Shown here in pieces: positions 22,355 to 62,152 of a stretch of 64,000 nucleotides of DNA; the first letter of the stretch is position 1; every line of letters begins with the position of its first letter. The notes beneath the pieces were generated by a model. It saw only the letters and a list, made by a program, of their open reading frames with translations. It was not told the DNA's origin and made no database searches. Source of the stretch: Candidatus Omnitrophota bacterium (GTDB taxonomy: Bacteria > Omnitrophota > Gorgyraeia > JAHIPI01); assembly GCA_016783745.1 (NCBI GenBank), contig JADHVZ010000001.1, forward strand, positions 9,447 through 73,446, written 5' to 3'. A program made the position numbers and the translations under genes.

Positions 22355-22431
22355 CGCCAATGGGTCCGGAAGAAATATTTCTTTAGTTTATCTTTTTTTT
22401 AATGTATAATCTAACACAAAGGAGCGGTCAT

Positions 22432-22812
22432 TTGGAACCGAGAGAATTGAAGGGCAAAATACTTTATATCGATGATGAGGTAGAATCCTGCGAGATGATA
22501 ATGAAGTTTCTTGACGCAAGGGACTTCGGGGTCATCGTAAGCTTTACAGGGGAAAGCGGCTATGATATGGTTAAGATGTGGGAGCCTGATCTTATCCTTA
22601 TCGATATAAAGCTTATAGGTATGAGCGGAATAGAGTTTATAGAAAAGATCCAGAAAGAAGGGATAAATACACCCTGCATCGTAATTACGGGATACCCGGA
22701 GAGGATAGCTGAAGTAGAGCTCAAGGAGCTGAATATATTCGGATACTACACAAAACCATACAGCGTGGCTGAACTTTACGGCAAGATAAAAGAGATCTTG
22801 GAGGTGACCTGA
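22432..22812 (+). CDS. Single-domain response regulator (CheY-like receiver). Probable TTG start at 22432 after AAGGAG; the ORF-track ATG at 22402 has no RBS.
   Basis: KILYIDDE (acidic pocket), DLILIDIKL (phospho-acceptor Asp region) and a conserved T/K pair downstream. Confidence 0.65.
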   Translation: MEPRELKGKILYIDDEVESCEMIMKFLDARDFGVIVSFTGESGYDMVKMWEPDLILIDIKLIGMSGIEFIEKIQKEGINTPCIVITGYPERIAEVELKELNIFGYYTKPYSVAELYGKIKEILEVT

Positions 22813-23168
22813 TGGCTGCCTATAGCGGACGTGAAAAGCGAAAACACAGAAGGATCTACAAGATCATCGGCACTAATATAATCCGCCATAATGCGAAAGA
22901 ATATGATCCAAAGCTTGATGAGGAAGTAGGCCTGAATATATCCGCAGGCGGGATTCTTATTGAGTGCGAAAAAAAATTAGAAAGGCAGGACAAGCTAAAG
23001 ATCAAGGTCATGCTCACTTTTGATACAGTGTATAAAATTATTGAGCTTAACACCGAGGTGGTCTGGATCAAAAAATCTTTCCGTAATACTTATTTTATAG
23101 GCTGTAAACTGACAAAACTCTCCCTGAAAGACAGGTTGATCCTCAAGAAATATACCGCTTCATTCTAA
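22812..23168 (+). CDS. PilZ-domain protein (c-di-GMP binding), translationally coupled to the receiver gene
   Basis: RxxxR motif (EKRKHRRIY) and D/NxSxGG motif (NISAGGILI). Its start overlaps the upstream stop. Confidence 0.6.
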   Translation: MAAYSGREKRKHRRIYKIIGTNIIRHNAKEYDPKLDEEVGLNISAGGILIECEKKLERQDKLKIKVMLTFDTVYKIIELNTEVVWIKKSFRNTYFIGCKLTKLSLKDRLILKKYTASF

Positions 23169-47314: not shown

Positions 47315-47393
47315 GCGCCTGTAGCTCATCAGGATAGAGCGGAAGTTTCCTAAACTTCGTCAGCAGGGGGTTCGAGTCCCTCCAGGCGCACCA
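47315..47393 (+). tRNA. tRNA-Arg (anticodon CCT), CCA-encoded, with an atypically long (7-nt) variable loop
   Basis: Hand-folded: acceptor GCGCCTG with CAGGCGC, D stem GCTC with GAGC, anticodon stem GAAGT with ACTTC, loop TTCCTAA (U33, A37), T arm GGGGG-TTCGAGT-CCCTC, discriminator A plus CCA. Confidence 0.65.
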
Positions 47394-47483
47394 CTATAGC
47401 GGTCGGGCTCCGGGGCCAAAAAGTGAGGAATGGGCTTTTTGCCCCTTCGTCCTGCAGCAATGGAATAAGCGGGCAGGACTAGC

Positions 47484-47593
47484 GACCGAGCGCGAAATGC
47501 GCGAGGAAGTGCAGTGTTCAACTGAACGCTGCCGACCGAGCGCGAAATGCGCGAGGAAGTGCAGTGTTCAACTGAACGCTGCCGACCGAGCGC
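47484..47593. repeat. 50-bp tandem direct repeat x2.2 (GACCGAGCGCGAAATGCGCGAGGAAGTGCAGTGTTCAACTGAACGCTGCC)
   Basis: Two exact 50-bp units plus a 10-bp third start. Together with the 47596-47632 palindrome they lie inside 26-bp direct repeats at 47403-47428 and 47663-47689. Confidence 0.8.
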
Positions 47594-48375: not shown

Positions 48376-48707
48376 CAGAATAGATTTTTTGTTATATTAA
48401 TAGTATTATATAGTTGTGATTTTTTTTGTTCTGAGACCTTGACAAAAGTGAGCTTTGTGGTATACTCTTTACCAAAGTGAAGGTATCTTTTAGTTACGCC
48501 TATACCACGGTAGGTAGCTTTAATCCGGCAAGAAAGGGGGTGAAATCCTTAAGGCTCAAGTTACCTATTAAAGCGTGATATAGATATAGATGTAGACAAA
48601 TTCGGGTCAAGTAACACGCATCTAAGGAATTCATCACAGGCCTGAATTCGAATGATATATTTTAAAATAAATTTAACGTATTAAATCGTAACATGAGGAG
48701 GTATAGT

Positions 48708-50195
48708 ATGAAGTTATTAAGGGGGCTATTTGTATTAGCTCTTGCAATAGCATTCACCATACCTGCACTCGCTGAAACGCAAAGCATCAAGCTAAGCGGC
48801 GATGTTATCGTCAGGCACATTATGCGTGACGATTATGACTTCAATAAGCATGATGATGATGTAGCTGACACAGACGCAAGCTATTTCATGCATAACGCCG
48901 AGATCCAGCTGGATGCCGATCTTACAGACAATGTTTCAGCGACTATCAGGGTGATGAATCAGACAGATTGGAACGTAAGCTATATTACAGAAGGAGCCAA
49001 TACCCACACAGACTATGATCCGCATGCCGTAGTCGGCGCCGGCGGCCTTGACGGCCCGCAGGATAACTACGGTGAGTTCGATGTCATAGTCGACCTCGCG
49101 TATGTGACTTTAAAGGAATTCTTTTTCACTCCTTTGACAGTCAGGATCGGTAAGCAGGATATATGGTTTGGTAAGGGTTTCATCATCGGCGGATTATTCG
49201 ATGACCCGAACGGCCAGATATCAGGTGATGAATGGTCAACCAATAATTCTTTCAAAGCCATAAGAGCGACTTGGGATTATGAGCCTTGGACAATTGACGG
49301 TGTGTTCGCGATGATAGAGGAAAACGAAGTCCAGGCAGATGACGACCAGCAGCTCTACGGTGTAAACGTTGGTATTGACCTGTCAGAATATAAAAATGCG
49401 GAAGTAGAAATGTACTACTGGTACATGATAGACGATGAAATACCGAACTTCATCACCAGCAAGGAAGACCGCATCCACGTCCTTGGTACGCGAGGCAGCT
49501 TTGATCCTCACGAAGACATCACTCTCTTTGGTGAACTCGCGTTACAGGGTGGCACGTACATAGCAAACGCAGTGCAGCCTGAGCCCAAGAAGAGAAATGC
49601 ATGGGCTTGTGATCTTGGCGCTGACCTCAGACTCTGGGAAGATGATTATGCCTGGAGGCCTGTATTCGGAGCCGAGTATATATTCTATTCCGGTAATAAT
49701 GAGCATAACACGACATTAGCCGGTGAGGACTTTAAGGGTTGGAACAGAATGTTCCGCGGAAAGTTAGACAGCGCGATCCACGATCATTATAACGTGTTCT
49801 ATACCGCTGGAATGCCCACAACGGAGAGAGCTGATACAAACCTGCATCAGTTTATCCTGAAGTGGGGTCTTCAGCCAATGGATAACCTTTCGGTTGACGG
49901 GAGATATATACATTTCCGTCTGCATGAAAACGCATGGGGGCCTTCAAACGCTGCCGGTACGATGGGCTATGGCGTACAGGAGAAAGGTGTCGGAAACGAA
50001 GTCGACATAGAGTGGACGTATGAATATACAGAAGACGTCACATTCGGTCTCTTAAGCGCGTGGTTCTGGTCCGGAGATTACTACTGGACTCCTGAAGATA
50101 CAGACAGCACAGCGGCTGTAGTTGCCGGAGCGAACTCTGGTAGTTCAAAGAGCGTTGCAAGAGAAGTTGTTGCTACTTGCAAAGTCTCGTTCTAG
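48708..50195 (+). CDS. Secreted putative outer-membrane beta-barrel protein (start at MKLLRG after GGAGG; the ORF track begins at 48693)
   Basis: Signal peptide (LAIAFTIPALA), an alternating hydrophobic pattern, an aromatic-rich sequence, and a terminal ...CKVSF with C-terminal Phe typical of OM beta-barrels. Confidence 0.45.
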   Translation: MKLLRGLFVLALAIAFTIPALAETQSIKLSGDVIVRHIMRDDYDFNKHDDDVADTDASYFMHNAEIQLDADLTDNVSATIRVMNQTDWNVSYITEGANTHTDYDPHAVVGAGGLDGPQDNYGEFDVIVDLAYVTLKEFFFTPLTVRIGKQDIWFGKGFIIGGLFDDPNGQISGDEWSTNNSFKAIRATWDYEPWTIDGVFAMIEENEVQADDDQQLYGVNVGIDLSEYKNAEVEMYYWYMIDDEIPNFITSKEDRIHVLGTRGSFDPHEDITLFGELALQGGTYIANAVQPEPKKRNAWACDLGADLRLWEDDYAWRPVFGAEYIFYSGNNEHNTTLAGEDFKGWNRMFRGKLDSAIHDHYNVFYTAGMPTTERADTNLHQFILKWGLQPMDNLSVDGRYIHFRLHENAWGPSNAAGTMGYGVQEKGVGNEVDIEWTYEYTEDVTFGLLSAWFWSGDYYWTPEDTDSTAAVVAGANSGSSKSVAREVVATCKVSF

Positions 50196-50213
50196 TTTAG
50201 TTTGATCTGAACG

Positions 50214-50260
50214 CAAAAAAGCCCGGCATTTCTAACGAAGTGCCGGGTTTTTTTGTTTTT
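50214..50260 (+). terminator. Rho-independent terminator (GCCCGGCA ... TGCCGGGC stem with T-run)
   Basis: AAAAAAGCCCGGCATTTCTAACGAAGTGCCGGGTTTTTTTGTTTTT sits directly after the OMP stop, with an A-run upstream and a T-run downstream. Confidence 0.75.
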
Positions 50261-50261
50261 C

Positions 50262-50290
50262 TTGACAACCATTTAGTAATTATGTATACT
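50262..50290 (+). promoter_or_regulatory. Sigma-70-like promoter TTGACA-17-TATACT
   Basis: Exact -35 hexamer and a near-consensus -10, about 40 nt upstream of the 50330 start. Confidence 0.45.
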
Positions 50291-50329
50291 TTACTAAAAT
50301 AAATCGATCAATAAAACCGGAGGTGAGGC

Positions 50330-50647
50330 ATGGCGGAGGATAAAGTAGTACAGGAAGGCAAGATATTCGCGGTAATCGGATACCTTGGTATCTTATGCCT
50401 TATACCTTTATTATTCAAGAAGGAGAACAAATTCGCCCTGTTCCACGGCAAACAAGGGCTGGTTATCTTTATAGGTGAGGTAGCCCTGGGCATTATAAGC
50501 GTAGTGCCGTTCCTGGGCTGGCTGGTGGGATTTTTCGGTGTTTTGATCTTCGGCATCCTTTCGCTAGTAGGTATTGTGCAGGTTTTAATGGGCAATTACT
50601 GGAGAGTGCCTTTAGTCGCTGATTTAGCCGATAAGTTTAATATATAG
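50330..50647 (+). CDS. DUF4870-like small membrane protein
   Basis: KFALFHGKQGL followed by two or three TM helices resembles the DUF4870 family. Confidence 0.45.
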   Translation: MAEDKVVQEGKIFAVIGYLGILCLIPLLFKKENKFALFHGKQGLVIFIGEVALGIISVVPFLGWLVGFFGVLIFGILSLVGIVQVLMGNYWRVPLVADLADKFNI

Positions 50648-50663
50648 TTTTGAGTATCTAACA

Positions 50664-50708
50664 ATAGGGGACAGACACTTTTAGACATAAAAGTGTCTGT
50701 CCCCTATT
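50664..50708. repeat. Simple hairpin copy of the palindromic element (AATAGGGGACAGACACTTTTAGACATAAAAGTGTCTGTCCCCTATT)
   Basis: Read directly: 19-bp perfect arms with a 7-nt loop, between the DUF4870 gene and the radical SAM gene. Confidence 0.8.
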
Positions 50709-50710
50709 CC

Positions 50711-51643
50711 ATGAAAATGAAAAAATCCAAAATAGACATTTACAAATCGATGAAGTTCTGTACTATTTGCCCCAGGAAGTGCGGGGTGGATAGGACTGCG
50801 GGTAAAAGCGGATTTTGTAAGGCCGGCAGCAAAATAGAGGTCTACTCTGCCGATCTCCATTTTGGGGAAGAGCCGCCGATCTCCGGCACCAATGGTTCCG
50901 GGGCCATCTTTTTTAATCACTGTAACCTGTCCTGCGCGTATTGCCAGAATTATAGATTCAGTCAATTGAAGGATGGTAAAGAGTTCGAAATAAGCTCATT
51001 TGTCGATCTGATGCTATCCCTTGAGAAGAAGGGAGCGCATAACATCAATCTCGTTACACCTACGCATTACGCTGTCCAGATCGCAAATGCCGTGATCGAG
51101 GCAAGACGTAACGGCCTGAAAGTGCCTATTGTATATAATTCAAGCGGCTATGAGAAGGTAGATGCCCTTAAGATGCTTGATGGGCTGGTTGATATATATT
51201 TAGTTGATATGCGCTATGCTGATGACGGACATGCGATGAAATACTCTTCCTGCGGTAACTACGTTGAATCAAATGAACAAGCCGTAAAGGAAATGTACAG
51301 GCAGGTCGGCACGCTAAAGCTATCCGGATCCGGCATAGCTGAGAAGGGCATAATAATAAGGCATCTTATATTGCCGAATGATATCAGCGGTTCCGAAAAG
51401 ATCTTCAGATTCATAGCGAATCAAGTCGATACCAACACCTATATATCACTCATGAGCCAATACTATCCTGCCAACAGGGCATCCACACACAGAGAGCTTA
51501 AGCGCGGCATAAATAAATCGGAATACGATAATGCAGTGCGCCTCCTATATAAGTATAACCTTAATCAAGGCTGGGTGCAGGAGTTCACGGGAGGCTTTGT
51601 TGATTCAGGCTTTGCAGGCACCAATATTGAACCCGATCTCTAA
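50711..51643 (+). CDS. Radical SAM enzyme, PflX/YjjW-like (pyruvate formate-lyase-activating-enzyme-related). Start placed after the hairpin.
   Basis: N-terminal CTICPRKCGVDRTAGKSGFCKAG, the radical SAM CNLSCAYCQN (CxxxCxxC), and a glycine-rich SAM-binding segment. The ORF-track start at 50693 would lie inside the hairpin. Confidence 0.65.
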   Translation: MKMKKSKIDIYKSMKFCTICPRKCGVDRTAGKSGFCKAGSKIEVYSADLHFGEEPPISGTNGSGAIFFNHCNLSCAYCQNYRFSQLKDGKEFEISSFVDLMLSLEKKGAHNINLVTPTHYAVQIANAVIEARRNGLKVPIVYNSSGYEKVDALKMLDGLVDIYLVDMRYADDGHAMKYSSCGNYVESNEQAVKEMYRQVGTLKLSGSGIAEKGIIIRHLILPNDISGSEKIFRFIANQVDTNTYISLMSQYYPANRASTHRELKRGINKSEYDNAVRLLYKYNLNQGWVQEFTGGFVDSGFAGTNIEPDL

Positions 51644-51669
51644 TCCCTTACGTATAAAATAAAATCCCA

Positions 51670-51878
51670 AATTCGCGCGAAGCACGAATTTGTCCTGAGA
51701 ATACGACAAAGAGGAGTATTCGAAGGGCCACAATTCGCGCGAAGCACGAATTTGTCCTGAGAATACGACAAAGAGGAGTATTCGAAGGGCCACAATTCGC
51801 GCGAAGCACGAATTTGTCCTGAGAATACGACAAAGAGGAGTATTCGAAGGGCCACAAATTTTTGCACGCTCGAATTTG
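51670..51878. repeat. 62-bp tandem repeat x3.3, each unit containing two short hairpins, degenerate last unit
   Basis: Units begin at about 51670, 51732 and 51794 and are identical. The fourth unit is diverged (CACAAATTTTTGCACGCTCGAATTTG). Each unit contains AATTCG..CGAATT and GAATAC..GTATTC inverted repeats. Confidence 0.85.
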
Positions 51879-52008
51879 ACTTTTTTTAAAATTGCAGGTA
51901 TACTTCATATTACCTTGTCATATCTTGTATTAATATATATAAAATATAACAATTCGTAGAAAACTATACTTGATTTATTTGAATCTTTGATAATATGGAG
52001 GTATAACG

Positions 52009-52212
52009 GTGAAGAATAGTGTGATGACTGTCCGCGAAGTTGCCAGGTACCTCAGGATGAAGCCGGTCACTATATATAAACATGCCCAGGAGGGCAAGTT
52101 GCCGGCTTTTAAGGTAGGTTCGTCATGGCGCTTCAAGAAAAAGACCATAGACGGATGGATCGCCGGACAGGAAAAGGAAGAACTCGAGAAATTGGATCTC
52201 GCGGTAAAATAA
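52009..52212 (+). CDS. Excisionase-family (Xis/AlpA-like, MerR-superfamily) HTH DNA-binding protein
   Basis: VREVARYLRMKPVTIYKHAQEGKLPAFKVGSSWRFKKKTIDGWI matches the excisionase-family DNA-binding domain signature (TIGR01764-like). Confidence 0.6.
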   Translation: MKNSVMTVREVARYLRMKPVTIYKHAQEGKLPAFKVGSSWRFKKKTIDGWIAGQEKEELEKLDLAVK

Positions 52213-52263
52213 TGCTGAGCTAAACAACTGCTCAGCTTTTTTACTTTCATACAAAGGTTTAAC

Positions 52264-53511
52264 ATGAGTAAACGTATAGTTATAACCGGGATAGGTGTAC
52301 TAGCCCCGAACGGAATAGGTAAGGATGAATTCTGGAACGCGTTGGAGCAGGCGAGATCCGGAATAAAGCCGGTTACATTATTCGATACATCCACTACAAG
52401 GTCAAAACTGGCCGGGGAGATATCAGATTTTGATCCTGTTCAGATCCTGGGAAAGAAAGGCCTGCGTACTCAGGATAGGAGTACAAAGCTGGTCAATTCC
52501 GCCGCGAAACTCGCGCTGGACGATGCCGGATTCGAATATCCGATACCTGAAGATGAAGCGGCTAAATTTGGCGTGGCCCTGGGCTCCACGATGGGAAGCG
52601 TATGGTCAATAAGTGAATTTGACAAAGTAGCGCTTCGTGAAGGACCGGGGGCGGTAAATCCGGCGCTGTTTTCCAATACAGTCATGAATTCTCCGGCAAG
52701 CCAGATCTCGATCAGATTTAACATAAAGGGCTTTAACGCGACCATCTCCACAGGTTTTACTTCCAGTGCAGACGCGATAAGCTACGCTTATAATCTTATG
52801 AGATTCTACGACTATAAAGTTGTTTTAGCGGGCGGAGTTGAGGAGCTATGTGAACAAACATTTAAGGGATTTCATAAAATAGGCCATTTAGCCGGTTCAA
52901 GAGGATCCAAACCGGAATTGAATTGCCCTTTTGACAAGAGGCGAAACGGTATTGTTGTTGGTGAAGGTTCTGCTATTTTTATTTTGGAGGATCTGGAACA
53001 TGCCCGATCAAGAGGAGCCAGAATATATGCTGAAATTTTAGGCTATGGTACATCTTTTGACGTGAAAAGCAGGAATATATATAACCCTAAAGCGGAGGGC
53101 GCGGCGGAAGCTATTAAATTTGCTTTAGAGGACTCAAAGACAAAACCGGAAGACATTGACTACATATCCGCAAGCGCGAATTCCACACTAGATTGCGATG
53201 TTATGGAGACAAGGGCCGTAAAAAAAGCGTGCGGCGAGCATGCGAAAGAGATACCGATAAGCAGCATTAAGAGTATGATAGGAGAGACTTTTTCGGCATC
53301 AGGCGCTATGAATGTTGCCGCAAGCCTTGGTGTATTTGAAAAACACTTTTTACCGCCGACGATAAATTATGAGAAGCCAGACAAGCGCTGTGACCTGGAT
53401 TTTGTGCCCAATAAGGCGCGAAGGAAAAATATTAATATAGCACTTGTTAATGCGTTTAGCCCTACGGGAAATAATACAACTTTAGTATTAGCAAGAAGCA
53501 AGGAGAATTAA
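52264..53511 (+). CDS. Ketosynthase-fold protein lacking the Cys-His-His catalytic triad (chain-length-factor / KS-beta-like)
   Basis: Thiolase/KAS fold throughout, but the active-site TACATG position reads STGFTSS, HGTGT reads SANSTL, and GHS/GHT reads GET. Confidence 0.7.
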   Translation: MSKRIVITGIGVLAPNGIGKDEFWNALEQARSGIKPVTLFDTSTTRSKLAGEISDFDPVQILGKKGLRTQDRSTKLVNSAAKLALDDAGFEYPIPEDEAAKFGVALGSTMGSVWSISEFDKVALREGPGAVNPALFSNTVMNSPASQISIRFNIKGFNATISTGFTSSADAISYAYNLMRFYDYKVVLAGGVEELCEQTFKGFHKIGHLAGSRGSKPELNCPFDKRRNGIVVGEGSAIFILEDLEHARSRGARIYAEILGYGTSFDVKSRNIYNPKAEGAAEAIKFALEDSKTKPEDIDYISASANSTLDCDVMETRAVKKACGEHAKEIPISSIKSMIGETFSASGAMNVAASLGVFEKHFLPPTINYEKPDKRCDLDFVPNKARRKNINIALVNAFSPTGNNTTLVLARSKEN

Positions 53512-53512
53512 T

Positions 53513-54256
53513 ATGCTGTTAAAAGATAAGGTAGCGATAATAAGCGGCGGATCAAGGGGCATAGGCAGGGCCGTGGCGCTGGAACTGGCAAATGAGGGAG
53601 CCGATATAGCTTTCAATTATCTAAAGAGCGAAGACAGGGCTCTTGAAGTTAAGAAGGAAATAGAATCAAAGGGAAGAAAAGCGCTTATCTTTAAGTCTGA
53701 CGTGAAGAACTTAGCTCAAATGAAGAATATGGTGAACGAGACGAAAGAGAAATTTGGTAGACTGGATATTATTGTGAACAACGCGGGGATATTACGGGAT
53801 AAAGCATTAATGCTGATGGGGGTAGAGGACTGGGAGGATGTTATTTCAACCAATTTATCCGGCGCTTTTAACCTTATAAAAGCCGCAATAGTCACGTTAA
53901 TGAAGGAAAAACAGGGTAATATCATTAATATAACATCAGTAGCCGGAATAAAAGGCATGCCGAGACAGGTAAATTATTCTGCCAGTAAAGCGGGACTGGT
54001 GGGCATGACCAAGGCTTTAGCTAAGGAAGTTGCCTCGTATAATATAAGGGTGAATGCCATAGCGCCGGGTTATATAGATACCGACATGGTAGGCGGATTG
54101 AAGGAAAACCATAAAACAGAGTTAATGAAAAGGATCCCCTTAAATAGATTTGGGACCCCTGATGAGGTAGCAAAGGTAGTGACTTTTTTAGCATCAGAAC
54201 GATCTAAATATATAACAGGGCAAGTAATATCAATTGATGGCGGATTGGCCATATAA
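53513..54256 (+). CDS. fabG: 3-oxoacyl-ACP reductase (FabG-type SDR ketoreductase)
   Basis: Cofactor motif GGSRGIGRA, NNAG, and catalytic S...YSASKAG (YxxxK). Confidence 0.8.
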   Translation: MLLKDKVAIISGGSRGIGRAVALELANEGADIAFNYLKSEDRALEVKKEIESKGRKALIFKSDVKNLAQMKNMVNETKEKFGRLDIIVNNAGILRDKALMLMGVEDWEDVISTNLSGAFNLIKAAIVTLMKEKQGNIINITSVAGIKGMPRQVNYSASKAGLVGMTKALAKEVASYNIRVNAIAPGYIDTDMVGGLKENHKTELMKRIPLNRFGTPDEVAKVVTFLASERSKYITGQVISIDGGLAI

Positions 54257-54269
54257 ACGGAGGTATAGT

Positions 54270-54521
54270 ATGCCTGAAATCTACTCCGAAACTTTAGAAA
54301 AAGATCTGCGGGCTATAGTTGCCGATATTGTCGAGATCGACGAGGGGAATATTACATCTGAGGCTAACTTCGTGGAAGATCTGGGGATGGATTCTATGAT
54401 GGCCCTGGAGATCCTGGCTACTGTGGAGAAAAAGTATAAGCTTAAGATCCCCGAAGAAAATCTTACAAAGATGACAAGCTTAAAGCAAGTAGTCGAGCTT
54501 GTTAACGGTTTGTTAAAATAA
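54270..54521 (+). CDS. Acyl carrier protein (start at MPEIY after GGAGG; the ORF track starts at 54234, overlapping fabG)
   Basis: Phosphopantetheine attachment motif DLGMDSMMALEI (the DSL/DSM Ser). Confidence 0.75.
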   Translation: MPEIYSETLEKDLRAIVADIVEIDEGNITSEANFVEDLGMDSMMALEILATVEKKYKLKIPEENLTKMTSLKQVVELVNGLLK

Positions 54522-54535
54522 AAAGTTAAAATATT

Positions 54536-55756
54536 ATGAATAAGCGTGTAGTAATAACCGGATTGGGAGTTATATCATCGATTGGAATCGGCAAAGAGGA
54601 TTTCTGGAATAATCTTATTGCCGGGAAATCCGGCATAAGCGATGTGACGACTTTCGATACCTCTAAATATGATAACCACAAAGGCGGCGAAGTAAAAGAT
54701 TTTAATCCATCAGATTTTATTTCTCGTAAGCATATAGCTGAGATGGGAAGGGCATCACAATTTGCAGTTGCAGCTTCGCAATTAGCACTTGATGATGCCA
54801 AGATGCACACCTTAGAAGCAAAAAAGGCTCGAGCCGGGGTGATAGTTGGCACAACCATGGCAGATGCTCAGGCCATAGAACAAATAGACAAGTATTGGAT
54901 TGATAAAAGTGAAGATGAAGTATGGGCAACAAATATTGTTAAATATCCAAGCAATGTTATAGCCGATAATGTAGGATACTATTTGGGGACACAGGGACCA
55001 AATTATGTGCTTCCTAATGCTTGTGCTGCAGGTAATTATTCTATAGGTTATTCTTTTGATCTTATAAGAGCTGGAAAGACTACCATTATGCTGGCTGGTG
55101 GTTCTGAGCAATTTTCAAGAATTACTTTTACTGGATTTAGCCGTCTATTTGCGATGTCTCCTGATCGGTGTCAACCCTTTGACAAGAATCGAAAGGGCAT
55201 GATTGTAGGCGAGGGAGCTGGCATATTGGTTTTAGAGGAATTAGAGCATGCAAAGAGAAGGGGTGCTACAATGCATGCCGAAGTACTGGGATACGGGTTA
55301 AGCTGCGATGCCCACCATATGACTGCGCCAAGTGTAAAAGGCATAACTTCGGTTTTGGAAAATGCTATGAAATTTTCAGATATAAGAAAAAATGATGTTG
55401 AATTTATCTGTACACATGGTACTGGGACTCCCGCCAATGATAGGGCTGAATGCCATGCCATGAAAAATGTTTTTGGAGAAAAATTCAAAGAGATTCCTGT
55501 AAATTCAATAAAGTCTATGCTTGGCCATACCATGGGAGCAGCAAGTGCGATAGAGTCAATAAGTACAATTTTGGCAATAAAAAATGGTATCATTCCACCA
55601 ACGATAAATTATGAGATATCCGATCCTGAGTGTGAGTCAGTCGACTGCGTAGCAAATGAAGCTCGTGTGAAAAAAATAAAAATAGCGCTAAATAATGCTT
55701 TAGCTTTCGGCGGCAATAACGCATGCATAGTTTTTAAAAAAATACAAAATTTATAA
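54536..55756 (+). CDS. Beta-ketoacyl-ACP synthase (active KS, FabF/KS-alpha-like)
   Basis: Catalytic Cys in PNACAAGN, His in THGTGTPANDRAE, and Lys/His in NSIKSMLGHTMGAAS. Confidence 0.8.
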   Translation: MNKRVVITGLGVISSIGIGKEDFWNNLIAGKSGISDVTTFDTSKYDNHKGGEVKDFNPSDFISRKHIAEMGRASQFAVAASQLALDDAKMHTLEAKKARAGVIVGTTMADAQAIEQIDKYWIDKSEDEVWATNIVKYPSNVIADNVGYYLGTQGPNYVLPNACAAGNYSIGYSFDLIRAGKTTIMLAGGSEQFSRITFTGFSRLFAMSPDRCQPFDKNRKGMIVGEGAGILVLEELEHAKRRGATMHAEVLGYGLSCDAHHMTAPSVKGITSVLENAMKFSDIRKNDVEFICTHGTGTPANDRAECHAMKNVFGEKFKEIPVNSIKSMLGHTMGAASAIESISTILAIKNGIIPPTINYEISDPECESVDCVANEARVKKIKIALNNALAFGGNNACIVFKKIQNL

Positions 55757-55757
55757 A

Positions 55758-56879
55758 ATGCCTAAATTTGCTTTTATAGCCCATCCCATAACGACAGAAC
55801 ATCTATATGAAATTTACAGCGGTTTTGCTGGTAAAATACTATCTTTTTTCCCGAAAAATATGCTTAAAGAATTATTGCTTAGACTTCCGCCTGTTAGTTT
55901 TGGAGTATGTAAAAATGTAAAATCATCAGAAGGAAAAACTATAGAAGGAGAAGGATTCCTTTTTCTTTTATTGCCAGAGCAGATAGCGATGCTCGACGAG
56001 AAATTTGTTCTAGACAAGATAGCCGCCACTATTAAAAAAGCCAAAGAGTCAGGTGCGCAGATTGCCGCGCTGGGCGGTTTCGCATCGGTAGTTGGTAATG
56101 AAGGAGAGAAGTTAGCCAAGCAAGTTAATGGTATAGCGATTACAAGCGGTAACACATGTACAGCAGCCTTGACTATACAAGGCATTCTTAAAGCAGCTTT
56201 AATTTTAGATGTGAAAATAGAAAATACTCATATGACAGTTATAGGAGCAACAGGTGATATAGGTAGTATTTGCTCAAAGATTTTTGCCAAAAAAGTAAAA
56301 AAATTAAATATAGTAGCAAGAAGGCAGGATCGATTATCCAATTTTGCTAACGCATTAAGAAGGAGTGGAAGCGCAGAAGTAGAGCTATTTAAACGTACAT
56401 CCGATGCCATAAAAGGCGTTGATATTATTCTGAGCACGACTAGTTCATTGACAACTTTGATCGAACCAGAATATTTAAAACCTGGAGCAATTGTTTGCGA
56501 TGTTTCTTTGCCTGCAAATATTCCCAAGGAAATAGTAAATATAAGGAAGGATATATTGGTATTTGAGGGTGGCCTGGCGAAATTGCCTTATTCAAAGGAG
56601 ATCAAAGGCAAAAATTGGAACAGATTACTGCCTGGTGATAGGACGTATGGTTGCTTGGCAGAGGCAATGCTTTTGTCGTTTGAGAATAGACTGGAGAACT
56701 ATTCGATTGCAAGGGGAAATATAACTGAAGAAAATATACAAGAAATATGTGGCTTATTAAAAAAACATTCTTTTGAAGTATCCGATTTTTTCTGTGGGTA
56801 TAAGTTTTTCACAGAAAAGGACTTGGAAGAGATAAAGAAATGTAAAGTGAAGGGAAATAATTATGCAGGGGTCCTTTAA
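55758..56879 (+). CDS. Acyl-ACP reductase (AAR) homolog, the fatty-aldehyde-forming long-chain acyl-[ACP] reductase family
   Basis: Collinear matches to cyanobacterial AAR from memory: FAFIAHP (FGLIGHL), AALGGFASVVG (SALGGFTSII), TSGNTCTA (TTGNTHTA), VIGATGDIGS (VVGATGDIGS), ARRQDRL (ARNQERL), and the catalytic-Cys region YGCLAEAMLLSFE (FACFAEAMLLEFE). Confidence 0.6.
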   Translation: MPKFAFIAHPITTEHLYEIYSGFAGKILSFFPKNMLKELLLRLPPVSFGVCKNVKSSEGKTIEGEGFLFLLLPEQIAMLDEKFVLDKIAATIKKAKESGAQIAALGGFASVVGNEGEKLAKQVNGIAITSGNTCTAALTIQGILKAALILDVKIENTHMTVIGATGDIGSICSKIFAKKVKKLNIVARRQDRLSNFANALRRSGSAEVELFKRTSDAIKGVDIILSTTSSLTTLIEPEYLKPGAIVCDVSLPANIPKEIVNIRKDILVFEGGLAKLPYSKEIKGKNWNRLLPGDRTYGCLAEAMLLSFENRLENYSIARGNITEENIQEICGLLKKHSFEVSDFFCGYKFFTEKDLEEIKKCKVKGNNYAGVL

Positions 56880-59004
56880 TCCATTTTTCATTCCATCCTT
56901 TATTGCATCGCTATTACTACTTTTTTTGGGAGTGTTTGTTTATTCGAGGAATAAAAAATCGTTAGTTAATGTTTTATTCTCGTTAGAATGTTTCGTGTCT
57001 TTTATATGGCAGTTTTGCTATGCTATGATGTATTTATTTTCCAATGATGAACAGCTAGCAGCATTTTGGATGAAAATAGGTTATGTGGGCGTAATCTACA
57101 TTTCAGTTTTTTATTACCATTTTATTATAGAATTTTTTGAAAGAAAGAAGGAAAGGATCATTGTCTATATTTCATACGGCATTGCTACCGTATTTGTTTT
57201 TTTTCATCTTACAACCAATTTGTTTACAAACGGAGTAATAAAATATTTTTGGGGGTACTATCCACGAGCATCTGTCATACATCCGTTTTTTTTGGTGTTT
57301 TTTATAGGTCTAATATGTTTAATCATAACTCATTCATTTATGGGGTTCTTGAATAGAGAGAAACTTTTTCACGATAGGAGAAAAGAGCAGGTCAAATATC
57401 TTTTTTGGGCATATTTTTTGTACGCACCAGCTTGTGTCGACTATATAGCAAATTATAATATTACGTTCTATCCGTTTGGCTACGTATTTTCAACAGCGTT
57501 TCTTGGTATTATCGCTTATGCTATTGTCAAACATCAACTTATGAATATTGAAGTCATTATACGCCGCGCGGTCGTGTTTACAGGATTATTTGCCGCGGCA
57601 TACGGAGTATTTGCTTTCTTTACATCACTGACTCAAGATGTGTTTCAGAATATTACCGGTGGAAATAGATGGGCGGTGTTTGTTCCTTCTATATTGCTAA
57701 TTGTGTTGGCATTGCGGCCACTGGAGAATTTTTTGGTCAGGATAACAGACAGGTTCCTATTTCAGAAAAAATATGATTATAGAGAATTACTACGCGCTCT
57801 TTCGCACGAAGTCATAACTATTATGGATCTCAACAAACTTACGAAGAGGATCGTTGATGATCTCGTAAATATAATGAGGGTTGAGAGCTGCGCTATCATG
57901 TTGTATGACAAGAATAAAGATGTTTATGATATTATTGCGGCCAGGGGGATAAAGGGCGGAAGTATATCATTCTCAAGGGATAACCAGACCATCACATTTC
58001 TTAAGACAGCTCATTTACCTATCAAGAAAAATGAGCACATTGACAAGATGGGTGAGAAGGGAACTATAAAGGAGGACATGAAGAAACTTGGCGCTGAATT
58101 TATCTTGCCTCTTATAGTGCATGATGAGCTCTTAGGCCTCATCAGCCTGGGCATGAAAAAGTCAGGAGAGGAATACAACCAGGACGATATTGCTATATTG
58201 GAATCTCTGACAGGGACAGCGTCGATCGCTATTAGTAACGCTCAGTATGTTGTCAATACTATGGAGCTTGAAGCGGAGGCGGCGCAAAGAGAGAAGATGG
58301 CCGTTGTCGGTACTCTGGCGGCAGGAATAAATCATGAGATATGTAATCCTTTAGGAATAGCGAGGGGGCAGTGCGAAGTCTACATATTAAATCAGAGAGA
58401 AGGGCTGTATGTCAATAAGCCCAAGGATGAGCAGATCGCCGAAGCCATGAAAGTCATGGAAAAAGTATTGCGTGAAACTGACAGGGCAACCGCGATCACT
58501 AAGAAGCTTTCAAGCTTTGCCAAACCGTCTAAAGGTGAGATATCGGAAAATGTTAAAATAGAGGAAGAGCTGGAAGAGGTCATAGCTTTGGTGGATCACG
58601 AGCTTAAACTGGGAAAGATAGATCTGAACTTGAATGTCCCGGATGATCTACCTCCTATAAGGTGTGACCGTAAACAATTACAGCAAGTATTATTTAACAT
58701 CATAAGAAACGCGGGCCAGGCCATAGGCGGCAAAGGAACGATTACTGTAGACATCAAGACCATTGAAGATAAGATCAGAATTCACATAAAGGACACAGGT
58801 CACGGTATATCTAAGGATAAGCTATCCGAGATCTTCAATCCATTCTATACTACTAAAGACCCGGGCAAGGGTACCGGCCTCGGGCTTTTTATAGTGCGTC
58901 AGCTTGTGGAAAGGAATAAGGGCAGGATCATAGTAGGCAGTGAAGTCGGAAAAGGCACCACATTTACATTGGAATTTCCGGCTACAGAGAGGGTGAAGTT
59001 ATGA
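56863..59004 (+). CDS. Membrane sensor histidine kinase (N-terminal 7TM sensor, GAF, HisKA, HATPase)
   Basis: Seven hydrophobic helices in the first ~230 aa, a GAF-like middle, H-box AAGINHEICNPLG, and N/G boxes (DTGHGISKD, GKGTGLGLFIV). It overlaps the AAR gene end by 17 nt. Confidence 0.75.
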   Translation: MQGSFNPFFIPSFIASLLLLFLGVFVYSRNKKSLVNVLFSLECFVSFIWQFCYAMMYLFSNDEQLAAFWMKIGYVGVIYISVFYYHFIIEFFERKKERIIVYISYGIATVFVFFHLTTNLFTNGVIKYFWGYYPRASVIHPFFLVFFIGLICLIITHSFMGFLNREKLFHDRRKEQVKYLFWAYFLYAPACVDYIANYNITFYPFGYVFSTAFLGIIAYAIVKHQLMNIEVIIRRAVVFTGLFAAAYGVFAFFTSLTQDVFQNITGGNRWAVFVPSILLIVLALRPLENFLVRITDRFLFQKKYDYRELLRALSHEVITIMDLNKLTKRIVDDLVNIMRVESCAIMLYDKNKDVYDIIAARGIKGGSISFSRDNQTITFLKTAHLPIKKNEHIDKMGEKGTIKEDMKKLGAEFILPLIVHDELLGLISLGMKKSGEEYNQDDIAILESLTGTASIAISNAQYVVNTMELEAEAAQREKMAVVGTLAAGINHEICNPLGIARGQCEVYILNQREGLYVNKPKDEQIAEAMKVMEKVLRETDRATAITKKLSSFAKPSKGEISENVKIEEELEEVIALVDHELKLGKIDLNLNVPDDLPPIRCDRKQLQQVLFNIIRNAGQAIGGKGTITVDIKTIEDKIRIHIKDTGHGISKDKLSEIFNPFYTTKDPGKGTGLGLFIVRQLVERNKGRIIVGSEVGKGTTFTLEFPATERVKL

Positions 59005-59375
59005 AGAGGCCGAAGATATTGACTATAGACGATGAGATGGGTTTTGTTGATATGATAAAAAACTATTTTTCTCTGCGCGGATATGACGTATTCACAGCTC
59101 TGAGAGGCGCTGCCGGATTGTATATCATCGAACAGGAAAAGCCTGATGTGGTTTTAATCGATTTCAAGATGCCGGAAATAGACGGGGATCAGATCTTCCG
59201 GCAGATGAAGAAGATCCACCCTGAAGGAAAGGCTATTATGATAACCGCGTTCAGGGATGAGGGGGGGACTGAAAAGAGATTATTAAATATGGGGGTTTAC
59301 GCTTATTTTGAAAAACCGATCACATCCATGAAGGATCTTGAGGCAACGATAAAAAATGCGGTTACACAAAAATAG
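59001..59375 (+). CDS. Stand-alone receiver-domain response regulator
   Basis: ILTIDDE, VVLIDFKMP (Asp phospho-acceptor) and IMITAF. No output domain. Start overlaps the kinase stop. Confidence 0.7.
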   Translation: MKRPKILTIDDEMGFVDMIKNYFSLRGYDVFTALRGAAGLYIIEQEKPDVVLIDFKMPEIDGDQIFRQMKKIHPEGKAIMITAFRDEGGTEKRLLNMGVYAYFEKPITSMKDLEATIKNAVTQK

Positions 59376-59380
59376 AGGCG

Positions 59381-59767
59381 GTGATTAAAATGATCAAAGT
59401 TTTAGTGGTAGATGATGAGCAGGAGATATGTAATTTTGTAAGGGATTTTTTCAAGGAAAGAGGCATTGAGGTCATAACCGCCTTAAACGGGGAAGAAGCT
59501 CTTGAGATGATAAAGAACGAGGAAGAGCTTACAGTGCTTCTTGATATCAGGATGCCTAAAATGGGCGGTATGGAGGCGTTACGCCGCATAAAAAAAGAAA
59601 AACCGCGCTTCAAGGTGATCATGGTCACATGCATCGATGACATTGAGAAGATGGAAGAGGCTAAGAGATGCGGCGCCGAGGCTTACTTAACAAAACCTTT
59701 AGTCCTTAAAGAGCTGCTTAAAGTTGTCATGAATAATGTGCCGGGTAATGACAAGAGCGGAAAATGA
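59381..59767 (+). CDS. Stand-alone receiver-domain response regulator
   Basis: VLVVDDE, VLLDIRMPKMGG and IMVT. No output domain. Confidence 0.7.
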   Translation: MIKMIKVLVVDDEQEICNFVRDFFKERGIEVITALNGEEALEMIKNEEELTVLLDIRMPKMGGMEALRRIKKEKPRFKVIMVTCIDDIEKMEEAKRCGAEAYLTKPLVLKELLKVVMNNVPGNDKSGK

Positions 59768-61101
59768 AGAAGGATAAGAAAAATAAAAATAATTGGAAAG
59801 AAATACAGAATCAGCTTATCAAAAAATGCCTGGATGTCAAGCCGCATTTTACGCCTTCCGGCCGCTTGAAGACCACAGATAAGCTCAATTACAGGGAGGT
59901 GATCGAGAAGGCGTCGCGAAGCATGATCCGCTTTAAGAAACCTACGCGCCTTATACGCATGATAGTGCGCATAATAGCTGAGCAGGTAAGGGTTCTTCAT
60001 ACAGGGGTCTTATTATATAGAGAAAAGAATAATTCCTATGTCCTTATAGACAGCAAAGGTGAGGAAGGGAAGAGGCTTCCCATCGGATATGTAAGACTAC
60101 CTTTAGATAGTCCGCTGATAACCGCATTTATGGAAAAAAAGTCATTTTTGATAGACTCACACGGCGCGCTTCTTCTCGAAAAGATAACGAAAACGCTTAA
60201 TGACGCGGATTTATTGAAAAAACAGATGGGGATGGAGCACAAGATCAAGAGATTAAAGTCTGAAATGGATATATTACGTTCTGAAGTCTGTATCCCGGCA
60301 TACTACAAAAGAAAGTTACTTGGAATATTAATTCTGGGGCCGAAGCTTTCCGGAGAAAAATATAATGATGATGAGATAGGCTTTTTCGCTACTTTAGCGA
60401 ATGACGTGGCGATGGCGATCACGAATTCCCAGCTTATAACAAGCCTTCAATCAAAAGTAAAAGAGATAGGTGTCCTTTATGAAAAGGAAAGACGGCTTTT
60501 TATCCACACCTCAATAGCCCTGGCCGCCGCAATCGACGCGAGAGACCCGTATACTCACGGTCATACGTCGCGTGTTACCCACTATTCTCTTAAAATAGCG
60601 GATGAGCTAAAGCAGGCTCCTGAAATAATGGATTATGAGAATTTCAGGGAGACGCTTCACATAGCGTCTCTTCTGCATGATATCGGTAAAATAGGGGTGC
60701 GGGACAATATACTGAATAAAGCCGATGCGCTTACCGGCGAGGAATACATAGAAGTCAAAAAGCACGCGGACATCGGCGCTGCCATATTAAGCCCGATAAA
60801 AGAACTGGGCGGTATCATAGAGATTGTCAGGGCCCATCATGAAAGATTTGACGGCACCGGATATCCTGGCGGCTTAGAGGCGGATGAGATCCCGTTTCCT
60901 TCGCGGATAATCTCCGTAGCGGATGTTTTTGACACGGTAACCACAGACCGTCCTTATAGAAAGAAAATACCGGACGCGGATGCCGTAAAAGAAATCGAGA
61001 AAAATTCAGGAACACAGTTTGATCCGCTGGTCGTACAGGCATTTGTCGATGCGTACAATAGGGGGAAGGAATTTTTAAACCCGACTTATTCCGGCTACTG
61101 A
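59764..61101 (+). CDS. GAF plus HD-GYP domain protein (putative c-di-GMP phosphodiesterase)
   Basis: HD motif LHDIGKIGV and HHERFDGTGYPGG (the GYP signature). The N-terminal half is GAF-like. Confidence 0.75.
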   Translation: MKKDKKNKNNWKEIQNQLIKKCLDVKPHFTPSGRLKTTDKLNYREVIEKASRSMIRFKKPTRLIRMIVRIIAEQVRVLHTGVLLYREKNNSYVLIDSKGEEGKRLPIGYVRLPLDSPLITAFMEKKSFLIDSHGALLLEKITKTLNDADLLKKQMGMEHKIKRLKSEMDILRSEVCIPAYYKRKLLGILILGPKLSGEKYNDDEIGFFATLANDVAMAITNSQLITSLQSKVKEIGVLYEKERRLFIHTSIALAAAIDARDPYTHGHTSRVTHYSLKIADELKQAPEIMDYENFRETLHIASLLHDIGKIGVRDNILNKADALTGEEYIEVKKHADIGAAILSPIKELGGIIEIVRAHHERFDGTGYPGGLEADEIPFPSRIISVADVFDTVTTDRPYRKKIPDADAVKEIEKNSGTQFDPLVVQAFVDAYNRGKEFLNPTYSGY

Positions 61102-61188
61102 CAATAATTAAAGATTGACTTAACCCGGCATTGGATGTATATTTATCGTAAAATCATCCTATTATAATAAAATACGGAGGAGATAATA

Positions 61189-61344
61189 ATGAATTTATTA
61201 TACAAAAGATCGTTAGCGGTTGTTTTTTTGATGATCATGCTGCTTCAGCTTTCCGGCTGCGGAGAGACCCTTCGGGGCGTAGGCAAGGATTGGGGCAGAG
61301 TAGGCAAAGGCGTTAAAACAATATTTGTCAGAGATAGCGAATAG
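61189..61344 (+). CDS. Entericidin-like small lipoprotein (51 aa; below the ORF-track length cutoff)
   Basis: GGAGG RBS 8 nt upstream. MNLLYKRSLAVVFLMIMLLQLSGCGETLRGVGKDWGRVGKGVKTIF matches the EcnA/EcnB pattern (lipobox C, then G.G.D....G). Confidence 0.45.
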   Translation: MNLLYKRSLAVVFLMIMLLQLSGCGETLRGVGKDWGRVGKGVKTIFVRDSE

Positions 61345-61369: not shown

Positions 61370-62152
61370 TTGTCAATACATCCCACCGCAGTAATAGATC
61401 CCGGAGCAGAGATAGCCAGCGACGTGGAAGTGGGGCCCTACACAGTTATCGAAGATAACGTAAAGATAGGACCGCGTGTCAAGATCTGGGCTAATGCCTA
61501 CATATGCAGATATACTGAGATAGGCGAAGACACCCAGGTACATATGGGCGCTGTTATAGGGCACTTGCCGCAGGATATTTCATTTAAAGATAAGAAAAGC
61601 GGGCTCCTCATAGGAAAGCGGAATGTGATCCGTGAATATTCGACCATCCACAGAGGTACGCATGAGGCCACTACTACACTGATCGGTGACGATAATTTTT
61701 TCATGGCGTTTGCTCACATTGGCCATAATTGTGTTCTGGGCAATAATATTGTGATGGTAAACGGCGCTACGCTGGGCGGGTATGTTCATGTGGGTGATAA
61801 AGCGTTTTTGTCCGCGTATGCTGTTGTGCAGCAATTTACCAGAATAGGAGGGCTTTGCATAATAGCGGCTAACTCGCGGGTCACTAAGGATGTACCGCCG
61901 TATATGCTGGCAAAAGGGGAGGATTGCAAAATATACGGCCTGAATGTCGTCGGACTAAGAAGGTCTGATTTCTCGCAGGAGACGCGGAATAAGATAAAGA
62001 AGGCGCATAAGATCCTCTATCTTTCCGGTTATAGATTAACCCAGGCGATAGAGGAAATTGAGAAAGCGGGCCTCGGTGAAGAGGTCCGGATTTTAATAGA
62101 TTTTCTGAAAGGTGATTCAAAAAGGGGTATTACGGCTAATATAAAAAGGTAA
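61370..62152 (+). CDS. lpxA: UDP-N-acetylglucosamine O-acyltransferase
   Basis: IHPTAVIDPGAEIASDVEVGPYTVIEDNVKIG hexapeptide repeats and C-terminal helical domain. Probable TTG start. Confidence 0.75.
   Translation: MSIHPTAVIDPGAEIASDVEVGPYTVIEDNVKIGPRVKIWANAYICRYTEIGEDTQVHMGAVIGHLPQDISFKDKKSGLLIGKRNVIREYSTIHRGTHEATTTLIGDDNFFMAFAHIGHNCVLGNNIVMVNGATLGGYVHVGDKAFLSAYAVVQQFTRIGGLCIIAANSRVTKDVPPYMLAKGEDCKIYGLNVVGLRRSDFSQETRNKIKKAHKILYLSGYRLTQAIEEIEKAGLGEEVRILIDFLKGDSKRGITANIKR

Follow-up and report, generated by a model that had tools for sequence, protein, structure and literature searches.

In Bacillus subtilis, the state of the membrane is reported by the DesK/DesR pair, whose intramembrane-sensing kinase lacks an extracellular domain and has a lipid-modifying gene as its neighbour. 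In the Rpf system of Xanthomonas, built around the diffusible signal factor (DSF), fatty-acid-derived synthesis genes adjoin a multi-pass kinase without a large periplasmic domain, and the module ends in a receiver-controlled HD-GYP output, with no DNA-binding response regulator among its members (PMC5391125), DSF being bound directly by the kinase RpfC (PMC5391125). Judged from its sequence, these two are the systems closest in logic to the locus described here, which lies in a stretch of 64 kb from a Candidatus Omnitrophota bacterium (contig JADHVZ010000001.1; the whole stretch is referred to as the window) and in which a sensor kinase, two receivers and a GAF-HD-GYP phosphodiesterase, all of them ordinary members of large families, stand as a cassette behind a lipid-type biosynthetic cluster. 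The domains and catalytic motifs of the cassette are intact, and the comparison of related loci shows that the pairing of its kinase with the last of the biosynthetic genes, a thioester reductase, is kept across Omnitrophota. The evidence is comparative and predictive throughout, and the part of the genome in view is the window, so that any diguanylate cyclases, fab genes or additional kinase paralogues encoded outside these 64 kb are not counted.

The likeness to the two known systems goes along with clear differences. The kinase, like DesK, is an intramembrane one without an extracellular domain and is encoded at lipid genes, whereas DesK has five transmembrane (TM) helices, no GAF domain and a dimerisation and histidine phosphotransfer (DHp) domain of the HisKA_3 type, and acts through the DNA-binding DesR instead of a cyclic-dinucleotide enzyme. 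In comparison with Rpf, a ketosynthase/chain-length-factor (KS/CLF) pair, a ketoreductase (KR), an acyl carrier protein (ACP) and a thioester reductase take the place of the crotonase, a 7+2-helix GAF kinase that of a hybrid kinase with receiver (REC) and histidine phosphotransfer (HPt) domains, and two separate receiver genes plus an HD-GYP protein with a GAF domain of its own that of the fused RpfG; with the RpfF, RpfC and RpfG architectures all absent, the likeness is one of functional logic only. KS-CLF pairs in Candidatus Omnitrophica have already been catalogued by genome mining (PMC10132072), and a genome-mining survey lists "ladderane-like" clusters in Omnitrophota (PMC9902471); the literature on Omnitrophota yielded no account of the kinase-receiver-HD-GYP cassette that is embedded here, nor of its linkage throughout the phylum. 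The reductase and the cassette comprise the following genes:

55758..56879, + strand: acyl-ACP/thioester reductase of the acyl-ACP reductase (AAR) / PigE N-terminal family (PigE N-terminal domain, 176 bits; AcACP_reductase, 125 bits)
56863..59004, + strand: sensor histidine kinase with a 7-helix membrane bundle, GAF, DHp and catalytic and ATP-binding (CA) domains (Pfam HisKA_7TM, GAF and HATPase_c)
59001..59375, + strand: stand-alone receiver REC1 (Pfam Response_reg only, 73 bits)
59390..59767, + strand: stand-alone receiver REC2 (Pfam Response_reg only, 97 bits)
59764..61101, + strand: GAF-HD-GYP phosphodiesterase (Pfam HD_5, 124 bits; motif HHERFDGTGYP encoded from 60835)

Coupling of the reductase and the signalling genes

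The run of ten genes between 52009 and 61101 lies on the + strand, with intergenic gaps of at most 51 nt throughout, in the order HTH_17, KS/CLF, KR, ACP, KS, thioester reductase, 7TM-GAF kinase, receiver(s) and GAF-HD-GYP. An earlier note on this DNA had drawn attention to the four signalling genes, all of which are present on the + strand at the coordinates that it gave, with their domains confirmed; its word for the receivers, "orphan", is better replaced by stand-alone, as they are encoded beside a kinase. The reductase has 373 aa, the kinase 713 aa, REC1 124 aa and the GAF-HD-GYP protein 445 aa, and REC2 has 128 aa from GTG 59381 (the start in the list of open reading frames, ORFs) or 125 aa from ATG 59390, which is the start taken here, like that of the ACP, following gene callers on identical contigs. 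The overlap between the start of the kinase and the stop of the reductase that the same note had pointed out is borne out and amounts to 17 nt, from ATG 56863 to the TAA at 56877-56879 (read from the sequence, in which no other in-frame start precedes TM1 of the kinase). Its description of the four signalling genes as stop/start-coupled holds in the form of 4-nt ATGA overlaps at two junctions (kinase/REC1 and REC2/HD-GYP), with REC1 and REC2 separated by 5 nt to GTG 59381 or 14 nt to ATG 59390, and a purine-rich stretch resembling a Shine-Dalgarno sequence precedes each cassette start, within the preceding gene. This layout of starts and stops shows the reductase and the cassette genes, as far as gene boundaries can tell, to be translationally coupled. 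Independent promoters or terminators between 55758 and 56863 would have spoken against the linkage; the scans, which register consensus matches only, give one promoter-like match (10/12, 56448-56475) and one weak hairpin (56402-56421) there, both within coding sequence, and region-wide the promoter-like matches number 47, against 37.5 +/- 5.6 expected from shuffles, the terminator-like ones being also near chance. An internal promoter or terminator between reductase and kinase was thus rejected, the matches being intragenic and at chance density, and the overlapping stop and start codons, together with the lack of any above-chance signal, are consistent with a single reductase-cassette operon.

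Is this adjacency kept in other genomes? The reductase-side set consists of 80 loci, one per GTDB species, with reductase identities of 31-61%; 59 of them are labelled Omnitrophota, and most of the others bear the generic labels "uncultured Planctomycetia", "Planctomycetales" or "bacterium". The loci were annotated by phmmer with the window proteins as queries, unrelated genes being labelled only where Pfam was run. A kinase homologue with the membrane region lies on the same strand, at most 5 kb downstream, in 53 of the 56 loci having at least 3 kb of downstream sequence (40/43 where at least 5.5 kb are available), compared with 3/44 in an upstream control flank of equal size, and its start abuts or overlaps the reductase stop in 36 loci. 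A receiver follows the kinase in 39/49 loci, and an HD-GYP homologue is found downstream in 17 of the 38 loci with at least 8 kb, nearly always right after a REC2-type gene. Starting from the other side, six kinase homologues of 44-49% identity on long contigs all proved to lie in a KS/ACP lipid cluster of the same type (6/6); five of these loci (L083-L087) also have HTH_17, two receivers and HD-GYP, all of which are absent from the stretch examined of the sixth (L088). L083, L084 and L086 retain the cassette but have, in place of the AAR-type enzyme, a non-homologous reductase of the NAD_binding_4/epimerase type, and in L057, L060, L063, L064 and L074 the kinase and a receiver stand between biosynthetic genes, so that the pairing survives reductase identities as low as 31%, the shuffling of gene order and the replacement of the reductase itself. 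A neighbour-joining tree of the kinases separates paralogue groups that are adjacent to the reductase with a receiver only, that come with REC2 and HD-GYP, or that form the clade of the window, with REC1, REC2 and HD-GYP; all of these groups reside in this locus, and the named homologues of all three window proteins used as queries come from Omnitrophota, with a protein identical to the HD-GYP enzyme deposited at NCBI under a Candidatus Omnitrophica metagenome-assembled genome.

The general density of bacterial gene packing is the one thing that speaks for the signalling genes merely happening to follow the biosynthetic ones. Given 53/56 loci downstream against 3/44 in the upstream control, the six concordant look-ups from the kinase side and the persistence of the pairing through divergence, chance adjacency is hardly credible, and the synteny data lead us to exclude it. 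The proposal of the earlier note that the signalling genes are coupled to the biosynthetic cluster, physically and in evolution, would have fallen if homologous clusters lacked the module, and it withstands that comparison.

Biosynthetic enzymes and their product

Upstream of the reductase, four genes encode the enzymes and the carrier protein of the cluster:

52264..53511, + strand: CLF-like KS without catalytic residues (Pfam ketoacyl-synt N and C domains)
53513..54256, + strand: ketoreductase, a FabG-type short-chain dehydrogenase/reductase (Pfam adh_short_C2, 242 bits; KR, 76 bits)
54270..54521, + strand: acyl carrier protein, 83 aa, with a DSM phosphopantetheine-attachment motif (Pfam PP-binding, 54 bits)
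54536..55756, + strand: complete ketosynthase, FabF-like (Pfam; NCBIfam PRK07314, 418 bits, cut-off 387)

The FabF-like KS has the Cys-His-Lys-His set (C/H/K/H), which is retained in 24/24 homologues, and the CLF-like protein carries F/S/K/E at the positions of Cys/His/Lys/His in E. coli FabF, with F, Y or M at the Cys position in 18 of 19 homologues. The combination of one active KS with a partner lacking the Cys and with a discrete ACP, a pattern kept across loci, is that of a KS/CLF pair of the kind found in type II polyketide synthases (PKSs). The order of the genes, resembling fabG-acpP-fabF, could suggest a housekeeping fatty-acid synthase; on what the 64 kb in view contain this is improbable, as the reductase and a KS partner without the Cys speak for a specialised system. 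The KR and, in relatives, an ApeI/ApeP-like dehydratase extend the likeness to type II PKS and aryl-polyene clusters, from which the locus differs in the reductive release by a thioester reductase, in the two-component/HD-GYP cassette embedded in it and in that genes for an aryl starter, a cyclase or Lol-like export were not observed.

The reductase shares full-length homology, including the Cys, with cyanobacterial AAR and with the N-terminal domain of PigE, and its residues C299 and E302 are invariant across 18 homologues, C299 being presumably the catalytic Cys of cyanobacterial AAR (as placed by comparison with the AAR of S. elongatus). The label AAR, used in the earlier note, is therefore adequate at the level of the family (176 and 125 bits, with the Cys kept) but not at that of the cyanobacterial equivalog TIGR04058, to which the protein does not belong (124.8 bits against a cut-off of 449.7). 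Neither an aldehyde-deformylating oxygenase nor an aminotransferase domain was noticed among the annotated genes of the window or those of the inspected loci, where no specific search for them was made. Based on the KS/CLF, KR, ACP and reductase assignments, the biosynthetic part can be described as a type-II-PKS-like chain builder with reductive release.

Related loci add a varied set of accessory genes, which encode FabA/ApeI-like dehydratase, CrtI-like FAD oxidases, GMC oxidoreductase (in L084 and L086), nitroreductase and a B12-radical-SAM enzyme, and also PlsC-type acyltransferases, a fusion of fatty acyl-AMP ligase (FAAL), ACP and acyltransferase, 4HBT thioesterases and an ICMT/PEMT methyltransferase. 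In a distant Omnitrophota clade (L026, 9506-11101; L053, 9422-10993), an N-terminal SRPBCC domain (Polyketide_cyc/lipid-transport) is fused to the reductase. Because of these lipid-related accessory genes and of the SRPBCC fusion, a membrane-associated lipid is favoured over a small diffusible signal, and the gene content favours, without settling it, an aldehyde or alcohol of the fatty or polyene type that may be incorporated into glycerolipids. The SRPBCC-reductase fusions are preceded by a PlsC-type acyltransferase and by a second, divergent reductase-like gene.

Proposed sensing, phosphotransfer and cyclic-dinucleotide output

The kinase consists of seven helices (residues 9-225), two long helices (227-299), GAF (306-465), DHp (470-553) and CA (562-707) domains. 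It belongs to HisKA_7TM (PF16927; 44.2 bits against a cut-off of 28.6, residues 13-229), and its AlphaFold2 (AF2) model has a predicted local distance difference test (pLDDT) score of 79 overall and of about 90 in the membrane part, where the bundle is similar to the 7TM folds of the G-protein-coupled receptor (GPCR) type and shows, outside the membrane, just a short beta-hairpin (residues 122-136). The earlier description as a "7TM-GAF" kinase is thus right about the bundle and the GAF domain, and has to be corrected for the two further long hydrophobic helices in the model. Across 79 homologues, conservation is 94-100% at the phospho-acceptor H491 (in the motif HEICN) and in the N, G1, F and G2 boxes, which identifies a HisKA-type histidine kinase; the HExxN motif marks bifunctional kinase/phosphatases. 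The alignment with PrsK (TIGR02916), a family of PEP-CTERM/exosortase-associated kinases (PMC1569441), spans positions 6-679 of the 679 of the model, through the multi-pass N-terminus, GAF, HisKA and HATPase, but scores 125 bits against a 300-bit cut-off; exosortase, PEP-CTERM and PrsR (sigma-54) genes were not noticed in the annotated window ORFs or in the inspected loci, no dedicated exosortase search having been made, and membership was rejected on score and gene context. A rhodopsin-like sensor, with a polyene aldehyde as Schiff-base chromophore inside the 7TM bundle, was rejected as well, since residues 1-300 of the 79 kinases contain no Lys-specific conserved column; the basic positions of the membrane part are mixed K/R and mostly near helix ends, as judged by eye against the AF2 helix boundaries. 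HisKA_7TM proteins also occur elsewhere in related loci: downstream of the cassette in L087 (14492-17838), four genes in a row encode stand-alone proteins of ~260 aa that consist of HisKA_7TM only and lack kinase domains, and a further 7TM-GAF kinase comes after them, and a convergent HisKA_7TM kinase without GAF (~540 aa) plus a receiver lie beyond HD-GYP in L084, L085 and L086, accompanied in L084 and L086 by an HTH_3-Cupin_2 regulator.

Both stand-alone proteins have the invariant residues of true receivers (the equivalents of CheY D12, D13, D57, T87 and K109 in REC1, REC2 and their homologues) and represent two distinct orthologous types, of which the REC1 type is confined, among the fetched loci, to the clade of the window. 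Consecutive segments of a fused NosR-family model of NCBIfam match the receivers and then the HD-GYP protein. The latter contains the motifs LHDIGK and HHERFDGTGYP, with H305, D306, H358, E360, D363, G366, Y367 and P368 invariant in 33 homologues, and the HD_5 match, the HD dyad and the HHExxDGxGYP motif, also present in the catalytic domains of PmGH, PA4781, DvhD and V-cGAP3, classify it as an HD-GYP phosphodiesterase.

A product-linked lipid-sensing circuit, in which the kinase, REC1/REC2 and GAF-HD-GYP form the conserved downstream half of the cluster, is the reading that we put forward, and we consider it evenly balanced between being right and being wrong. In such a circuit, the enzymes would build an ACP-bound acyl or polyketide-like chain, to be released reductively as a fatty aldehyde or alcohol that would end up in the membrane, and the kinase, a multi-helix bundle without extracytoplasmic domain, would read the abundance of the lipid, as the earlier note had suggested, or the resulting state of the membrane. 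It would then set the phosphorylation of REC1 and REC2, the HExxN motif suggesting that it may act as kinase and phosphatase, and phosphorylated REC2 would act on GAF-HD-GYP, in the manner of a fused REC-HD-GYP regulator split into two proteins, and alter the hydrolysis of a cyclic dinucleotide, most likely cyclic di-GMP (c-di-GMP). With sensor and enzymes probably translated from a single coupled transcript, the circuit could work as a product-linked feedback or reporting loop. We infer the sensed signal, the phosphotransfer partners, the control of HD-GYP by REC2 and the nucleotide substrate. A bolder version, in which HisKA_7TM would be a GPCR-like intramembrane receptor for a polyketide-type lipid aldehyde or alcohol from the adjacent enzymes, the shared GAF module would read a cytoplasmic cue common to both proteins and the whole would be a phylum-wide lipid-to-cyclic-dinucleotide circuit, is possible though doubtful; if true, it would give Omnitrophota their first defined signalling pathway and provide a counterpart of Rpf/DSF that is structurally unrelated to it and lies outside the Proteobacteria.

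The same arrangement could serve cell-cell signalling in the manner of Rpf/DSF, with a diffusible fatty aldehyde or alcohol as autoinducer, the 7TM kinase as its receptor and HD-GYP lowering c-di-GMP at high signal. A layout in which genes for making a lipid signal adjoin a membrane kinase and an HD-GYP output would fit it, as would the similarity of the bundle to ligand-binding folds of the GPCR type, and the kinase paralogues and stand-alone 7TM proteins that accumulate in the locus (L087) could reflect signal/receptor diversification. This autoinducer scheme is nonetheless unlikely, since the PlsC, FAAL-ACP-acyltransferase and phospholipid/ICMT methyltransferase genes of relatives point to a structural lipid, the Pfam and NCBIfam assignments of the window proteins include no RpfF-type crotonase, no hybrid HPt kinase and no fused REC-HD-GYP, and a nearly universal presence in the phylum is more typical of a housekeeping trait.

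A second input is provided by the GAF domains. The one in the HD-GYP protein is below threshold in Pfam (25.3 against 28.6); residues ~60-220 match the GAF structures 3ci6 and 3oov with a TM-score of about 0.72 (AF2 and Foldseek), which identifies the domain, and many HD-GYP homologues carry PF01590 (GAF). The GAF of the kinase (57778-58260) and that of the HD-GYP protein (59881-60438) share 28% identity (BLASTP E 9e-17; hhalign 99%, E 6.6e-18), in a homology that takes in the flanking pre- and post-GAF helices, and on these alignments the two modules are paralogues, which sets this N-terminal sensor apart from those of known HD-GYP structures. The phosphodiesterase resembles the cytoplasmic sensor of the kinase with another output, and the two proteins may associate or bind the same ligand; in the proposed circuit, the common module would give both proteins a second, shared cytoplasmic input. 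Since both carry it, a cytoplasmic ligand could also be the main input, in which case the cassette would control the cluster or the envelope in response to an unrelated GAF cue (a nucleotide, redox or a metabolite), the lipid would go unsensed and co-location would mean co-expression. Two-component systems beside the pathways that they regulate are common, as with DesK/DesR and des, and would accommodate such a control; against it, conservation is equally high in the membrane bundle and in the GAF (mean column identities of 0.395 and 0.391, respectively, in the 79 kinases), and the bundle is the best-modelled part of the protein, which argues for a function, and none of the cassette receivers has a DNA-binding domain. 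We regard this control on a GAF cue as improbable, and come back to it with the head of the cluster.

Which cyclic dinucleotide would be hydrolysed? Most of the characterised HD-GYP proteins act on c-di-GMP, and Foldseek, with an AF2 model of pLDDT 78, ranks the c-di-GMP enzymes PmGH (4mcw) and PA4781 (4r8z) and the c-di-GMP-bound DvhD (9rbz) first for the C-terminal half. The best matches by sequence in the PDB are V-cGAP3 (5z7c, E 2.7e-36), specific for 3'3'-cyclic GMP-AMP (cGAMP), and then PmGH (E 2.7e-29), so that c-di-GMP is a probable substrate, not a proven one. Whatever the input, the enzyme might instead hydrolyse 3'3'-cGAMP or yet another cyclic dinucleotide, an option favoured by the order of these matches and by the lack of a GGDEF motif in the window. 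The structural ranking and the PilZ genes, present in the window and, in kinase-less loci, at the cluster, once with REC-GGDEF, speak against it and leave it quite unlikely. Two of the three loci without the kinase carry PilZ in its stead: the L067 gene (6832-7215) overlaps the stop of the reductase, and in L009 (14607-15881) a PilZ gene stands at the cluster beside a REC-GGDEF gene. A PilZ protein in the place of the kinase again points, if anecdotally, to c-di-GMP. Across the fetched loci, a single true GGDEF domain turned up among 1033 ORFs with a minimum length of 150 aa. The CheY-PilZ pair of the window, which the earlier note had brought in as a c-di-GMP receptor, is real (CheY 22402-22812, PilZ 22812-23168), but it lies 34 kb away with no synteny link to the module and was rejected as a partner of the cassette.

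Several observations weigh against the lipid-sensing circuit. The cluster in the window has neither a dehydratase nor an enoyl reductase, which leaves the product undefined, and the conserved membrane positions of the kinase (W49, Q176, P204, Y219 and D/N228) yield no clue to a ligand. The HD-GYP protein has no receiver domain, so that its control by REC2 is read from adjacency alone, and it is found within 10 kb in only about 45% of the loci; its best sequence match among solved structures is an enzyme specific for 3'3'-cGAMP, and no long ORF of the 64-kb window contains a GGDEF (nor an EAL) motif. Finally, a conserved hairpin after the HTH_17 gene suggests that the transcription of the cluster is itself gated. 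The claim of the earlier note that the relay ends in c-di-GMP hydrolysis is hence plausible from sequence, with the reservations raised by the missing receiver domain, the GAF domain of the enzyme and its kinship with a 3'3'-cGAMP phosphodiesterase.

The head of the cluster and the meaning of the locus

The cluster opens with a small regulatory gene, flanked by two short elements:

51876..51904, + strand: promoter-like TTGACT-17-TATACT, 10/12 (consensus scan only; ~105 nt upstream of the HTH_17 start)
52009..52212, + strand: HTH_17 (excisionase/MerR-like) DNA-binding protein, 67 aa, at the head of the cluster (Pfam HTH_17, 58.6 bits)
52214..52242, + strand: terminator-like hairpin (GCTGAGC, 9-nt loop, GCTCAGC, then T6), between the HTH_17 stop and the KS start at 52264

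The HTH_17 gene, called as a gene in the identical contig, has a homologue upstream of the cluster in 31/63 loci and in 5/6 of the look-ups from the kinase side. The earlier note had overlooked it in stating that there was no DNA-binding output; with HTH_17 heading the cluster, the absence of a DNA-binding component is inaccurate, which does not imply a link to the relay. The hairpin ends 22 nt short of the first KS start, and a hairpin with a T-run and an unrelated stem is found at the equivalent position in eight loci (L004, L006, L007, L010, L011, L013, L083 and L085). Owing to this conservation of position, the biosynthetic and signalling genes probably need read-through of a terminator or attenuator, and the layout suggests that attenuation or read-through controls the whole cluster after HTH_17. 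The site at 51876-51904 is a candidate promoter for the cluster, such matches being near chance density region-wide. HTH_17 and the hairpin would offer a transcriptional control point open to the relay or to a nucleotide, which would suit a cassette regulating the cluster on a GAF cue; the Rfam result, with no riboswitch in the window, counts against such a control, and we know of no link from c-di-GMP to HTH_17. Rfam at the gathering threshold gives only tRNA in the window, and a permissive scan of 50150-52300 gave chance-level matches only; a riboswitch upstream of the cluster, for c-di-GMP or another ligand, was consequently rejected.

The 365-nt gap between a radical-SAM gene and HTH_17 is occupied, just upstream of the promoter-like site, by three tandem copies (100% identical) of a 62-nt unit (51670-51855), each copy containing a pair of short palindromes. 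In L002, an independent assembly of this sequence, the contig breaks off within copy three, and the unit has no copy elsewhere in the window or in the 85 loci compared; it may represent a small RNA, an array of operators or a repeat that is sensitive to assembly. Another tandem repeat, equally perfect (2.2 copies of 50 nt, 100% identity) and with a GCGCG-type palindrome, lies in the intergenic region at 47483-47593, after a tRNA gene (47315-47390). Upstream of the cluster, the stretch 48693-51643 contains genes for an outer-membrane porin of the Alginate_exp type, behind which lies a strong terminator (50213-50256), for a small DUF4870 membrane protein and for the PflX-like radical-SAM protein. 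The last two also adjoin the cluster in L004, and L057, L074 and L075 have the porin and the small membrane protein again, together with the LOG-like gene. After the HD-GYP stop come a promoter-like site (61115-61143), a lipoprotein-like ORF of 51 aa (61189-61344) and lpxA (61370-62152), and the conservation of these downstream neighbours is absent in more distant loci.

Omnitrophota is an abundant, mostly uncultured phylum of very small bacteria, whose envelope lipids and signalling are, to our knowledge, essentially unknown. The locus suggests that their cells monitor or control the lipid of this cluster via a second-messenger switch, and turns this into a testable hypothesis, that of a reductively released KS/CLF lipid encoded together with its own kinase, receivers and cyclic-dinucleotide phosphodiesterase. 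The reductase-kinase pair is a good metagenome marker for finding and comparing such clusters, some of which may now carry "ladderane-like" or type II PKS labels in genome mining (PMC9902471, PMC10132072), and the shared GAF module and the split receiver/HD-GYP arrangement offer useful cases for the study of HD-GYP regulation. If the kinase reads the lipid or the state of the membrane, it would represent a new solution to the sensing of membranes or lipid signals, and a function would be assigned to the poorly understood HisKA_7TM domain.

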